DNA from: an uncultured Hormoscilla sp.
Lineage (GTDB): Bacteria; Cyanobacteriota; Cyanobacteriia; Cyanobacteriales; Desertifilaceae
NCBI GenBank assembly: GCA_963921275.4
Contig: OZ001293.3
Span: 6,560,001-6,624,000, forward strand
Direction of reading: 5' to 3'
DNA length: 64,000 nt
Shown here one piece after another: positions 1-64,000 of this stretch. The notes under the pieces were generated by a model. It did not search any database, was not told the origin of the DNA, and was given only the letters and a program-made list of their open reading frames with translations. Position 1 is the first letter of the stretch, and every line of letters starts with the position of its first letter. The position numbers and the translations under genes are program-made.

Positions 1-597
1 CGGAATTTCTCCCTAGTTCTGTGACATTAAGGTTACTTTTCCCAAGGGTGTCTTACCATATCCGTCCTACGTCTGCATATCCACAGGCATTACCCTGGGC
101 GTTAGCTTCTTAGGACATCCTTCTTCTTCGTGGCTTGCGCTTTACATCTAACTTGTCCAAATGGGGACAGCTCACGAGAGGTTACTTCGTTCCCTAGTAT
201 CATTTCACGATGCTTTTAGGTTCCTACTATACCCCGGGAGTTCTTTGAGTACGTTATTAGCCAGAGGCAAGAGCTAATACTAACTACCATTTCCCTTTTT
301 GGGCAAGCGCATAAGCCTTCTTCCGCTGGTTCTGGTTAACGAGGTTTACATAGGTTCGCTTGTTCTAACCATTAGCATCTTTCCTAGCGGCGTCACCGGC
401 TTAGGCTGCCAGTTATCCTACATTTAAGTCCTCGGGAGGCACCACGGCGATGTGGCTCCGTAGCACCTCCGACCGGTAGTACCCTCGACCCCCGTACCTG
501 GGGAAAGGGAATTTAACCCCCATGATAACCAGAGTTATCTGGCTGATAGAGCCAGACCCGACTTTCACCTACTGGCTTATGCCGGAACGAATCGCAC
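1..597 (-). mobile_element. ORF-less group II intron, 5' part (continues beyond left edge)
   Basis: Minus strand starts GTGCGATTCGTTCC at 597. Reverse complement matches 26604-27200 in length and at every position compared. Confidence 0.93.
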
Positions 598-1180
598 CAT
601 CTCCCACCAGTCTATCGTTAGCGTCTGTTCCTTGACGAACATGTGCCAGGTATTTTAAATCTTCTTTGGTTGGCAAAATTGTTTCCAATAGGCTTTTGGG
701 GACATCAATAACCGTCACTTTATCGTCATCGTGTTGTCCTGGTTCTAAGTTGAAGCTGGGAAACTTAGCCCCATAACTACTTGTATTTTTGAGTTGCCCG
801 AGGGTAACAATCTGAGGCGTCGGCTTTTCGTCCTCGTCGAAGAGAAGCAAAGCCAACCAAGGAATGTCCCTGTCCTCGCTAGAACTGTCGATCGCTCTTT
901 CCCAAGGTAAGGTACTGCGGTTGAAAATAACATGGGGAAAGACGTTAGAGTGTTCCCCCAAACTCCCTGGCGGTGGGAAAACCCCATGGATGTCTTGGGG
1001 ATTTAGAGCGAAACGTTCTCCGGCGACATGAAATGTTTTCTCTCCCGTTGTAAAGGGAGCTTGACCTTGTATCTTGCTACTTTCAATAGTTTGAGTAACG
1101 GTAATCTTATATTCCCCATCTCTCAGTGCCGGTTGATGGTACTGGATGAATTCAACCTTAATAGGAGCTTGAGTAGTCAT
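598..1180 (-). pseudogene. 5' half of a conserved hypothetical gene (neighbour of the DUF6603-like gene), cut by the intron; 3' half at 27531-28888 (+)
   Basis: MTTQAPIKVEFIQYHQPAL...DRLVGD then GTGCG. Joining GAT G| to |AG TTA GCC (27531) gives in-frame DELAVVIGNRLP. Confidence 0.8.
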
Positions 1181-1268
1181 TGTAATTTTTGTCCTCGTTG
1201 CCAAAAAATTATCAAGCGATGCCCGAGGGGTTTTCGCCATGCGTCCCGAGGGCATCGTTGATTTTTGA

Positions 1269-2975
1269 TTATGCCTTTACTTGCGGGGCGACTAAAAAAT
1301 CAGCCGCTACCTCCCTATTCAGATCCACATCTTTGCTGGGTTCAAATCCTAAACTTTGCAATAAACTATCTCGACTGGAGTTCTGCACCAACGTATTGCG
1401 AATGCGATTTCTCAGTCCCTCCTCGTCGAGAGTGCTGGCTTGAAAAGGGGTTTGATTTTCCCAGCCATAACCAGTGGGAGCCGATTCCGGTTCGTATTGC
1501 AAATTGCGGCGGTTAACGGCATGAGTTTGACCCGGCGCTGGCGGTCTTCCGGGTTTTATTTCAAATCCCGATAGGGCATTTTCTATAAATTTCGTTCCGT
1601 TCAGATCGGGACTCAGGGATTTGCCCCACAGCCCTGCTGGCACCTTCTTCAAGATGGGGATATACTTAAAGTCGTCATCTTTAACAGGCGGCCCATCTTT
1701 TTTAGTTATCTTAATCCGGTGCTTGGTTGTTAAGTCTCCATCACTGACTTCCATTGAGCCAATGCCGAAGGCGGTGTTAGCTTGAACATGGCTGCCATCT
1801 GTCTTTGTTATCAAGATTGGGGATTCTCCAGTAGAGACTACCTTGTAAGCCTGTTTCGAGGGCACGATCGCATTCGTCACCAGGGATAAGTGCTTGGGAT
1901 TGATGACTCCCAGATCCGATTCGTTGTCGCCAATTTTCCGCACCAAGCCATCTTTAAAGGCAATAGTACATACCTTGTCGTCTTCCGGCAAGAAGGAATT
2001 TTTGAAGGTGCCCCAAGAAATTGGTTGGGGCTTTCGGGACGAACTGTCTCCGAAACTGACGTGAACTGAAACAATCCAGATATGGATGGTCGCCGTACCG
2101 CCAAATTCCGGTCCCCAGATATGTAGGTCTGCCCCCAACTCCACCGTAATGTGATGGGTGCCAAAGAAGTGAAAGGTGTAAGATGCGCCGATGTCGATAT
2201 AGATCCGGGCGTCGTAGTGATAGGGCTTCCAGGCAATTAAAAAGTCTGCCCCCACCTTGAACCATGCCTTGAGGGCACCGCTGTGATAGGTGGCGTCTAA
2301 ATGTCCTCCGGCCATGAAGGCATGAGAACATAGAGCAAAATAGGCATCTCCTTTGATGGTAATGTGACTGTCAACTCTCCAGTTAAATCCCAGCCTGGGA
2401 ACTTGGGGATAGTGGCTGGGTACCTGGAAACTGGGATGGTAGCCTCCCAGGGTGGTGACGAAATCTCCTCCGTGTTCTCCAGAGAACCAACAATAAAAGG
2501 CAAACCCTCCCGTGAGGTGACAGTTTCTCGACAAGAGATAGGAGGCGGAGGTCAGTTGGGCCCGCACTCCCAAAAAGCCTTCATCGGGAATAAAGCTGAC
2601 CTTCAAGACCATCTGGACTTCCGCGATAGGGGTAACGGTTTCTCCTTCCTCTGGCGTGGGCAAGATCGCCGTAGATAAACCGAGAATATCTAACTCAAAG
2701 CGGTTGCCGAAGGAAGCGGTCAGCAGGACGAAGGAGTCAACTAGCTTGAAGGAGTTGAACTTGATGCCGACGGCCAGGAAATATTCTCCCACTGCCGGAG
2801 AGATGTATTTGGCGATTTTGTCCAGTTCGGCAGCCAGGTTGCCAGTATCGCCCGTATTGTTGACTGCTTCTTCCACGAGGGGAAACTGAGCGACTTTCTC
2901 AATGGGCGGGACTCGCAAGTTGCGGTTGTAGCCGAAGCCCCCCGCCAAGCCGGTGATGAAGAAGAAGGAGGGGCC
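1269..2975 (-). pseudogene. C-terminal part of a large DUF6603-like protein, 5'-truncated
   Basis: 559-aa ORF preceded by GPSFFFITGLAGGFGYNR with no credible start; upstream replaced by repeats. Family assigned from memory of the motif. Confidence 0.6.
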
Positions 2976-3007
2976 CTTCGGTGATGCCCAAGATGAAAGT
3001 AAAATTT

Positions 3008-61567: not shown

Positions 61568-61894
61568 ATGAGCATTAAATCTACACAGCTTCTACCAGTC
61601 TCGCCACTAGCAATGGTTATCTTAACCGTTGCGATCGAGGCTACAGGATCGATCCCCGTGCTACCGTTTTTGGTGCAGCAATTTCGCTCCGATGCCTTCA
61701 CCATCGGTCTGCTGGCATCTAGTTTTGCCATAGCTCAGTTCTTAACAGCCCCTTTATTAGGAATTATGTCCGATCGATACGGACGGCGTCCTATTATACT
61801 GACCTGTGCTGCTAGTGCATCGATAGGGTTTTTCACTCTTGGTTTGGCAAATACCTTGGGTGCATCTCAATTTTGCATCTGTGACCTATCATAG
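61568..61894 (+). pseudogene. TetA-like MFS transporter, N-terminal fragment
   Basis: GIMSDRYGRRP motif A; breaks at a GGTGCATC-ended repeat near 61859. Confidence 0.75.
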
Positions 61895-62110
61895 ACTTTT
61901 ATCTATGATAAAATTTATTGGCTTTTGCCAAGGATGCATCTTACTTTTGCAAAAACATCATGTAGAAAGGGCCCCATTTATATAAGCACAACGTCAAGAA
62001 AGTATTTGGGGAAGGTTGGATAGTGCGATGAGTTCTAGCCTAACGTAGTCAAATACGGAACGCTAGCCTAGGAAACTAGTAACTCTGATATTCATGGGGG
62101 TTAAGTTCCC

Positions 62111-62864
62111 GTGCGATGAGTTCCAGCCTAACGTAGTCATATACGGAACGCTGGCCTAGGAAACTAGTAACTCTGGTAATCATGGGGGTTTAATTCCCCC
62201 TCCCCAGGTACAGGGGTAACCGCGTGAGGTGCTGCGAAATAACATCGTCGTGGTGCTAAGCGAGGACTCAAATGTAGGATAGCTGGCAGCCCAAGCCGGT
62301 GACTCCGCTAGGAAAGATGTCCATGGCTAGAACAAGCGAACCTATGTAAACCTCGTTAAACCCAACCAGCGAAATAAGGCTTAATGCGCTGGAACAAAAG
62401 TTAATGCAGTTAGTGTTAATTAGGGAATTGGCTAACATTGTACCCAAATAACTGCCGGGGAAAAGTAGGGGCCTAAAGGCATCGTGAAATGATACCAGGG
62501 AACGAAGTAACCCTTCGTGTGCTGTCATAAAGGACCAGTCAGATGTGAAGCGCAAGCCGCGAGTGGGAAAGATGGCCTAAGAAGCAAATGCCCGGAGTAA
62601 CGCCTGGGATATGCAGACGTCGGTCGGTGATAGTTGGAAGTCTTGGGTAAAAGTAGCCCTAAATATGCCTACAGCTCGGGGGAAACCTGTCAGAGATGGA
62701 TAAGCTCAAGGGGCCAAATCTCATGAGACGAGGGACAACGGGAGTAATCCCGAAGTTACCTACCAGTGACAAGGACCAACTACCCAGTAGCCGTGTGCGG
62801 TGAAAGTCGCATGCACGGTTCCGAACGGGAGGGTTGGGGAGCGATTCCCAGCTCGACCCCTAAT
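62111..62864 (+). mobile_element. ORF-less group II intron nested in domain I of the outer intron
   Basis: GTGCGA...canonical DV...CTCGACCCCTAAT; removal restores GTTAAGTTCCC|TCTCCCCAGG. Confidence 0.94.
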
Positions 62865-63487
62865 TCTCCCCAGGCGCGGGGGTAACCGCGTGAGGTGCTG
62901 CGGAGTAACATCACCGTGGTGCCTCCCGAGGACTTAAATATAGGATAGCTGACAGCCTAAGTCGGTGACGCCGCGCTTGTTAGATGTCCAAGGTCAGAAC
63001 AAGCAAATTCATGTAAGCCTCGTCACATCCAACCAGCGAAATAAGGCTTTATGCGCTGGCCCAAAAGGGAAAGTAGTTAGTATTGGTTATTATCCATGAC
63101 CAATATCGTGCTCTAAGAACTACCGGGGTAAAGTGGAGACCTAAAGGCATCGCGCTCCGGATATCAGGGAACGAAGTAACTACTCGTGTACTGTCCGATC
63201 GGACCAGTCAGATGTGAAGCGCAAGTCACGGGTAGAGAGATGGCCCAAGAAGCAAATGCCTGGAGTAATGTCTAGGATAAGCAGACGTGCGGTGAGGGTG
63301 GGTGATAGTAGGAAGTCTCGGGTAAAAGTAGCTCTAAAACGTTATCAGCCCTTCACTGCGAAGTGATGAGGAATAAATTACTGGTAAAACGGACGTGAAA
63401 ATGGTGATACTAAAGGTTATCCGGCAGCGCCACTCACCAACCAGTGAAGGAGCAAAATCGCATGAGACAAGGGACAATGAGAGTAAT

Positions 63488-64000
63488 GTGCGATTCGTTT
63501 AGTGTAAACCACCGGCGATAAGTCGATGGGGGACCACTGGCAGGGTTCCATCAGCCCTGACAACTTCTAGATGATGGTGGTGAAAGTCCACCCCTCCAGG
63601 TGCAGGAGTGACAGCACTTACCCGACGGTAGCGATGGCATCAATCCGTAAAGCGGGTAAGAAAGGCGCAATAACTGGTAGCCTGAACCAGTTACCGCCAA
63701 GCAAGTAGTCATGGTGAGCGAAAGCAAAGACTCATATAAGTGTCGTTACATTGAACCAGCGAAAAGGCTGATGCGCTGGCCCAAAAGGGAAAGGATACAG
63801 GTCATTGGCGGTTGTTTTTCCGACCAATAAGCACTGACAATAAACCCGGCATAGAAAGTCCACCTAAAACTACGACCAATCATCTAGAGGAACGAAGTAA
63901 ACCAGGTACATACTCTCAACCACAGGTCGATAGGTTGAGTAGCCACCACAGGCGCAACATCTGCTTTTATTTGGCAGGTTGTATCTGGGAGAGATTTCGT
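63488..64000 (+). mobile_element. CL-type group II intron 5' part nested in domain IV of the outer intron
   Basis: Colinear with 35615-36140; runs off the window. Confidence 0.9.

Follow-up and report, generated by a model that had tools for sequence, protein, structure and literature searches.

How does a bacterial chromosome come to hold a crowd of group II introns that encode no protein, and what directs them to their sites? The question is raised by the window analysed here, a stretch of 64,000 nt from the chromosome of an uncultured Hormoscilla sp. (contig OZ001293.3); Hormoscilla are sponge symbionts, not thermophiles. A first-pass annotation counted 11 related ORF-less introns in these 64 kb, and all 11 are present where it placed them (Table 1), with EBS1 hexamers and flanks that agree with those it quoted. 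Nine copies were parsed end to end, and those at 47251 (-) and 58127 (-) were read by eye. Ten different EBS1 variants occur among the 11. The window also contains two introns of a second family that bears a reverse transcriptase (RT), here called family B, which the annotation had missed.

Table 1. Group II introns of the window (positions in nt; EBS1 positions and pairing as available).
Feature	Coordinates	Strand	EBS1	Remarks
ORF-less intron, subfamily 2 (16 copies)	1..597	-	TGCCTC	5′ end at 597; extends 329 bases past the window start
ORF-less intron, single-copy subfamily	3831..5584	+	TCCAAA at 4154	outer twintron member; antisense within host ORF
ORF-less intron, subfamily 1 (72 copies)	4289..5123	+	TGCACT at 4610	nested in copy 3831
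ORF-less intron, subfamily 4 (9 copies)	6567..7563	+	TGCATA at 6929	
ORF-less intron, subfamily 2	26604..27530	+	TGCCTC at 26932	sense insertion; host ORF split into 112 + 294 codons; domain V mispaired
ORF-less intron, single-copy subfamily	34517..35435	+	GCCATT, 3/6 paired	antisense in pstS paralogue
Family B intron with RT	35615..38018	+		antisense in same pstS paralogue as copy 34517; RT ORF 36237-37520 ends before endonuclease domain
ORF-less intron, truncated in domain VI	46474..47251	-	AGCGAT, 5/6 paired	
ORF-less intron, subfamily 9 (3 copies)	53969..54890	-	AATCAA	
ORF-less intron with IS-like insertion	56319..58127	-	GGGCAG at 57805, 6/6 paired	insertion (about 56690-57530) bears terminal inverted repeats; 5′ part has 5 further copies in genome
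ORF-less intron, subfamily 14	62023..64000	+	TATCCA at 63091	outer member of triple nest; end at 65993, past the window
ORF-less intron, subfamily 10	62111..62864	+	GGGAAT at 62423	targets a conserved domain I site of its own ORF-less family
Family B intron, 5′ part; candidate helper	63488..64000	+		intact 592-aa RT/maturase/endonuclease just beyond window

Copy numbers and lineages

Across the chromosome, the ORF-less family has 361 complete copies (about 400 including fragments) and family B has 57 introns with 13 intact RTs; the two families make up about 7% of the chromosome. The genome holds 418 complete introns, 86% of them ORF-less, and 484 intron 3′ ends. The ORF-less copies fall into 57 subfamilies with a median identity of 73%, and 52 different EBS1 variants are found among 339 copies. 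In particular, two clonal bursts, subfamily 0 with 144 copies at 118 sites and subfamily 1 with 72 copies at 59 sites, together hold 216 of the 345 full-length copies; each burst is 99.8% identical and carries one guide set, and the larger has no complete copy within the window. The guides mark lineages, not individual copies, and with so many copies sharing two guide sets the annotated retargeting of each copy to its own site does not hold.

At least three congeners likewise show an expansion of the family. Among 400 further genomes of the class, a 241-base probe from domain I matched a single one, along 54 bases, and a plasmid search returned domain V matches only. In a 150-genome survey, where 29 candidates were scored per genome and copy numbers are not rankable, the 838 RF00029 candidates of this genome were the most among the rows listed. 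The count of protein-less group II introns is roughly three times the highest published bacterial count that we found, with counting methods that differ. Within the mainly open-access literature, no report of this ORF-less family, of a higher count or of introns in Hormoscilla was found.

Intron anatomy and guide-target pairing

The window copies are group IIB introns, identified through Rfam RF00029 matches in window and genome and having a 5′ GUGYG end, a domain V with the AGC triad, and a domain VI. The γ-γ′ contact, which links J2/3 to the intron's final base, is complementary at a frequency of 0.94, versus 0.49 expected, and is the best column of its scan; 54 of the 57 subfamilies have U at δ and three have a gap, an invariance that leaves no visible covariation for δ-δ′. 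The lower stem of domain V is mispaired in 21 of 57 scorable subfamilies, and the RNAalifold consensus on domains V-VI is poor. A spacer of 8 bases separates the bulged A from the 3′ end, against the usual 6 or 7 (PMC4748821), so that lariat formation is only putative. The 8-base spacer itself follows from the 69 of 69 empty sites that join without loss or duplication, from the covariation of EBS3 and γ, and from the 62 of 62 host ORFs that would otherwise be frameshifted. Because RT-bearing introns elsewhere share it, the spacer is a variant and no ground for exclusion from IIB. The 3′ end thus stands one base beyond its canonical reading, a shift that the annotation had missed.

With G-U/G-T pairs allowed, 59 of 66 EBS1-IBS1 positions in the 11 window copies are paired (shuffled mean of 32.2), as are 44 of 55 EBS2-IBS2 positions (25.2 when shuffled), and none of 100,000 shuffles reached either count. 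The annotated pairing of most EBS1 loops with their own flanks is borne out, as is the poor pairing of copy 34517. Genome-wide, with one copy per subfamily (n = 57), the observed complementarity exceeded all 10,000 shuffles for EBS1 (5.23 of 6 versus 2.58), EBS2 (4.14 of 5 versus 2.21), EBS2a-IBS2a at -14 (0.88 versus 0.44) and EBS3 (0.91 versus 0.46). Moreover, in a blind covariation scan of 62 subfamily representatives, the top 13 column-flank pairs were all EBS: EBS1 (-1 to -6), EBS2 (-9 to -13), EBS2a (-14) and EBS3 (+1). The guides vary at 0.70 per site, versus 0.26 for the scaffold, in keeping with the hypervariable guides described by the annotation. Its proposal of relaxed DNA specificity also agrees with the targets, which display almost no protein-type preference beyond a purine at -15, present in 53 of 60 lineages of the ORF-less family and at 82% of 45 family B sites.

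In EcI5 and Th.e.I3, the intron base two upstream of EBS2 (EBS2a) is reported to pair with target position -14, and this RT-stabilised pairing is required for DNA integration, not for splicing (PMC8643678). As described there, the contact is strict in both introns; in contrast, it is loose in the two largest bursts here, being paired at only about half of their sites, near chance.

Mobility, candidate helpers and rival explanations

None of the 361 members contains an RT, a sense ORF of 100 codons is absent from all 345 full-length members, and ORF remnants were not detectable in domain IV (best E 0.11). No intact RT with a scaffold that groups with the ORF-less family was found, and the RT-bearing introns of the genome are distant. 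The annotated picture of an RT-served, retargeting family therefore stands as to non-autonomy and guide pairing, but neither as to the retargeting of each copy nor as to a cognate RT. The only candidate helpers found are the family B RTs, which sit in scaffolds of about 60% identity (56-62% across domains I-III; shuffled control 48-53%) with a different 3′ end. Family B belongs to a chloroplast-like class and has 13 full-length ORFs; the best solved relative is 6ME0. Among the more divergent RTs of the genome (41-45% to family B, or lower), those listed are broken or lie in scaffolds that differ from that of the ORF-less family.

From the observed anatomy, boundaries, guide-target pairing, copy numbers and RT absence, we infer, with a probability of about 75%, that the ORF-less IIB introns move through RT-assisted reverse splicing into DNA, using the family B protein in trans. 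A family B RT would bind the excised intron RNA, with up to 13 base pairs (EBS1, EBS2, EBS2a, EBS3) and the purine at -15 accounting for nearly all of the site choice; about 10 to 11 base pairs would potentially suffice. Loop mutation and segment exchange between copies would create new lineages with new target sets, and a lineage would then burst into many partly matching sites. Antisense insertions would break the host gene, and sense insertions would be tolerated because they are predicted to splice. By a crude ORF rule for genic and intergenic assignment, 79 insertions in long ORFs are sense and 45 antisense (P = 0.003). Both the sole eno gene and the sole zwf gene are split by sense insertions, so that these copies likely splice. 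A more far-reaching account, which we put forward tentatively and at somewhat below even odds, is that of an old SINE-like lineage that no longer has an RT clade of its own and owes both its splicing and its spread to a non-cognate RT, whose own ribozyme is only about 60% alike, leaving the expression of core genes, eno and zwf among them, dependent on this shared maturase acting in trans.

Guides that adapted to their flanks after insertion, rescuing splicing rather than picking the site, could explain why the subfamilies with few copies, which are presumably older, show more pairing (11.1 of 13) than the two bursts (10.4 and 10.2). However, antisense copies, for which splicing out of the host mRNA is impossible, match sense copies in pairing, as do intergenic ones, and the antisense result largely refutes such adaptation. 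EBS1 is also constant despite different flanks (142 of 144 listed copies in subfamily 0 and 72 of 72 in subfamily 1), and EBS2a covaries though dispensable for splicing, which leaves this account very improbable. DNA duplication, IS carriage or assembly error could have produced the copies that share flanks (144 copies at 118 distinct sites) and the several that sit within repeated elements, but such routes account only for the minority with shared flanks. They are refuted as the main route by base-exact boundaries at all 69 empty sites and by a contig depth for a subfamily 2 segment of about 15 times single-copy in run X1, possibly the source sample, versus 16 assembled copies; we give them hardly any weight. 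At one locus, every contig of X1-X3 is broken at the intron.

Alternatively, a cognate RT-bearing parent, present on an unassembled contig, plasmid or phage or only recently lost, may have driven the bursts, with family B as a bystander. Completeness of the genome is 96.7%, in Thermosynechococcus elongatus the similarity of helper to passenger is 85-100%, and RT-bearing introns with the 3′ end of the ORF-less family occur in other cyanobacteria, where their RTs form a clade of their own (three rows, support 100/99). In particular, loci L166, L167 and L174, which end in TCGACCCCTAAT, share the domain VI end and the 8-base spacer; unlike the ORF-less family they encode an RT, about 52-54% identical to that of family B. 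However, their domain I matches the ORF-less family at 35-56 bits, versus 80-110 bits for family B. When one such RT intron was searched as DNA against this genome and those of four congeners, the 150 matches listed out of 297 reached only 64-71% over the ORF, and among the best 30 of 125 RT loci in two congeners none lies inside the family scaffold. Given also the complete lack of RTs within the family and its expansion in at least three congeners, from each of which the parent would need to be absent, this explanation appears unlikely.

Known systems and significance

The principle of trans-mobilised, guide-sorted ORF-less introns is already known from T. elongatus, where mobilisation by driver RTs has been demonstrated and the ORF-less TeI3 and RT-bearing TeI4 introns (IIB1) comprise 28 copies in 6 guide families (Mohr, Ghanem and Lambowitz 2010; PMC2882425). 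As reported there, those cyanobacterial IIB introns also sort by EBS with good EBS-IBS pairing, form twintrons, include lineages that target a site in other introns, and owe their targets nearly entirely to base pairing, together with A at -15. Diverged EBS families of the TeI3 type recur here as the 52 EBS1 variants and 57 subfamilies, on a far larger scale of copies. In contrast, the T. elongatus introns are described as 85-100% alike with ORF remnants kept, whereas the present family, with its 73% median identity, distant scaffold, absent remnants and other 3′ end, does not consist of close deletion derivatives of family B. That account gives few gene insertions, versus the 79 sense insertions in long ORFs here, and its host is a thermophile, whereas the named relatives of the present host are Hormoscilla. 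Judged from sequence, scale, a distant candidate helper and the 8-nt branch-to-3′-end spacer appear to be what differs from T. elongatus.

Mass expansion of group II introns, many without RT, in a filamentous cyanobacterium is likewise reported for Arthrospira platensis NIES-39, with at least 150 introns, 79 of them without RT (PMC2853384), or with 101 introns, more than in any other of 1,790 representative bacterial genomes, the cyanobacterial expansion type being named CL (PMC8919778). The complete introns and 3′ ends counted here exceed those figures, with a predominantly ORF-less composition, under counting methods that differ.

The origin of spliceosomal introns poses a standing problem: how did group II introns, at first present in a few copies, become abundant across whole genomes? 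The genome described here is a natural targeting library of about 480 introns and some 50 guide variants from which pairing rules can be read, and its two very young bursts supply readable targets at 118 and 59 sites. Should a distant RT be driving the ORF-less copies, that enzyme would be uncommonly permissive and of use for gene targeting with introns, and the host would illustrate how core genes grow dependent on a shared maturase. If the SINE-like reading is true, the genome would be a living model of how self-contained group II introns give way to a multitude that share a single splicing apparatus.

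Census, subfamilies and copies in the window

Profile searches hit the 5′ end 491 times, the EBS1 region 496 times and the 3′ end 444 times, in every case on contig C1 (OZ001293.3); adding a motif for a second 3′ type brought the totals to 490 5′ ends and 484 3′ ends. Pairing the ends yielded 418 complete introns, 361 of them ORF-less group IIB introns (family A) and 57 belonging to an RT-bearing family with a different 3′ end (family B), and left 72 5′ and 66 3′ ends without a partner. There are 61 nested introns. Of the 496 EBS1 regions, 408 resemble family A, and 7.1% of C1 consists of intron-like DNA. 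RT sequence lies inside none of the 361 family A introns and inside 52 of the 57 family B introns, 13 of the family B ORFs measuring 588-596 aa. The host genome (7.03 Mb, 47% GC) encodes a PurA ~80% identical to proteins of cyanobacteria, and the closest named relatives of one intron RT come from Hormoscilla, a genus of sponge symbionts. Contig C3 (31 kb, 17.6% GC) differs from the remaining assembly and is possibly foreign DNA.

With 16 others left aside, clustering at a 95% cut sorted the 345 family A copies that are 700-1050 bases long into 62 subfamilies, from 144, 72, 16, 14, 9, 7 and 7 copies down to a tail of 41 singletons; identity is 99.8% within each of the two largest and has a median of 73% between subfamilies. 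The assembled copy number of the 16-copy subfamily agrees with its contig depth in sequencing run X1 (623 vs 40), which may be the source sample. A 26-base palindromic insert (CGTCCGCGTAGCGTGCGCG...) recurs at one scaffold place in unrelated subfamilies, e.g. 12, 20, 24, 28 and 58.

All 11 ORF-less copies that the first-pass annotation reported in the window, which spans C1 positions 6560001-6624000, are real: 9 parse end to end, 1 is cut off in domain VI and 1 is split by an IS-like insertion. With 9 family A starts among its parsed copies, the window matches the highest count of any 64 kb bin (mean 3.3). The window also contains a family B intron whose RT ends before the endonuclease domain, and the beginning of a second whose RT is intact (592 aa). 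Among its intron-unrelated repeats are two inverted 621-base copies, 98% alike, and a 45-base element that occurs four times.

Locations of individual features
Feature	Location	Strand	Remark
Seeming 88-base tandem repeat	window 62023-62110, 62111-62198		One family member nested in domain I of another
Second pstS gene	window 33851-38100		Holds two antisense introns in tandem
Adjoining pstS	window 32603-33661		Intact
Intron-unrelated repeats	window 12079-13932; 43838-44458 / 47340-47959; 42364-42409
Cas6-like gene	window 48955-49836		Score under family cut-off
tmRNA gene split by group II intron	G000:C1:1775100-1778600 (host, L086)	-	RT frame of 600 codons, YADG instead of YADD
eno of a congener	G004:C14:9070-12772		Split at another position by RT-bearing intron

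Intron boundaries

The family A 3′ end reads ACCCC-NNN-Y, one base beyond the canonical reading. In empty alleles of the genome, 69 of 69 family A elements join at this later offset and at no other; for family B, the canonical offset fits 6 of 6 elements. With the shifted boundary, pairing is seen between EBS3 and the first exon base (0.88 v 0.38) and between gamma and the last intron base (0.94 v 0.49), and leaving the extra base in the exon causes a frameshift in 62 of the 62 host ORFs tested. The intron therefore ends eight bases after the bulged A, a spacing of 6 or 7 bases being given for most subclasses (PMC4748821). Since RT-bearing introns of other cyanobacteria carry the same 3′ end, the eight-base spacer is a lineage mark.

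Guide loops, target sites and host genes

The first-pass annotation proposed that guide loops mostly pair with each copy's own flank, and this is borne out. Across the 11 window copies, EBS1 forms 59 of 66 pairs with its 5′ flank (shuffled 32.2) and EBS2 44 of 55 (shuffled 25.2), values reached by 0 of 100,000 shuffles in either case. Genome-wide, every guide element beats all shuffles, both in the 339 of 345 copies whose guides lack gaps and with one copy per subfamily (n = 57); when every alignment column was scanned blindly against the flanks, the top 13 places went to EBS1, EBS2, EBS2a and EBS3. EBS covariation of the same kind is seen in family B introns (48 sites). In seven full congener copies EBS1 has 5-6 of 6 positions paired, and one copy fails at EBS2 and EBS3.

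Guides also vary far more than the scaffold, as had been suspected. Family A holds 52 different EBS1 sequences, and the per-site mean difference between subfamilies is 0.70 for EBS1 and 0.69 for EBS2, vs 0.26 elsewhere; where the local scaffold is 5-10% apart, EBS1 already differs at 66% of positions (104 lineage pairs). In the scaffold, domains I, III, IV and VI contain compensatory changes, among 23 pairs listed. Recombination is indicated by 13 lineage pairs, involving 18 of 60 lineages, in which one segment is near-identical and another at least 15% apart. The idea that each copy is retargeted to its own site did not hold: guides are a property of the lineage, one set serving 118 sites in the largest subfamily and 59 in the second, with 10.4 and 10.2 pairs per site out of 13, compared with 11.1 in small subfamilies. 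Lineages with EBS1 GGGAAT target members of the family itself, at a site within domain I.

Among 306 top-level family A insertions, 79 sense and 45 antisense ones lie within ORFs of at least 150 codons, and 182 (59%) lie outside, vs 43% of 1,500 random positions. Exon matches (14 of 17 pieces) comprise ribD, metH, eno, prfC, queG, gltB, rsmB, zwf and ectB. Single-copy eno and zwf are both split by introns; all 5 relatives have an undivided zwf and 4 of the 5 an undivided eno, the remaining eno being interrupted by an RT intron at a different position. The lower domain V stem is mispaired in 21 of 57 scorable subfamilies and paired in those in eno, prfC, ribD and gltB and in the zwf copy. Family A introns are probably spliced.

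Candidate helper RT and range

The shared RT proposed earlier, whose case hung on a cognate enzyme in this or related genomes, stands in part: the genome is rich in RTs, but none cognate to family A was found. Where an intron shares the 3′ end of family A, its RT falls into a clade of its own (3 of 25 rows, support 100/99), which did not turn up in the host genome or four congeners among 150 of 297 DNA matches. The RTs of family B resemble the CL class, and their best match of solved structure is 6ME0 (E 4e-114). The family A profile scores 80-110 bits on family B domains I-III (among 40 of 43 introns), at a global identity of 56-62% vs 48-53% for shuffles. Outside the guides, the sole conserved feature of family A sites, a candidate protein contribution, is a purine at -15 (53 of 60 lineages, vs 21-39 of 60 at -16 to -25); it recurs in 82% of 45 family B sites, and nothing stands out in the 3′ exon past +1. 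In T. elongatus A-15 is selected, and the authors allow that RNA may recognise it (PMC2882425). By elimination and from the common -15 purine, family B would be the helper. Genome-wide, 31 ORF-less introns, 17 of them antisense, are nested in RT-bearing family B introns, and their likely helpers are therefore disabled.

Three congeners hold 220-252 family A candidates each and one holds 9; in other genera matches lie chiefly in domain V, and two other genera have weaker ORF-less relatives. The published intron highs found, both from Arthrospira, are 101 (PMC8919778) and at least 150 (PMC2853384); the host genome has ~3x as many, by a different counting method. For 28 T. elongatus introns, Mohr et al. 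2010 (PMC2882425) set out each step of the proposed model and report experiments. Overall, family A is a real family of ORF-less IIB introns, centred on one genus and active in recent times, whose mechanism is of a known kind; it stands out for its scale, the variety of its guides, its spread into core genes, how far it lies from any available RT, and its 3′ end.
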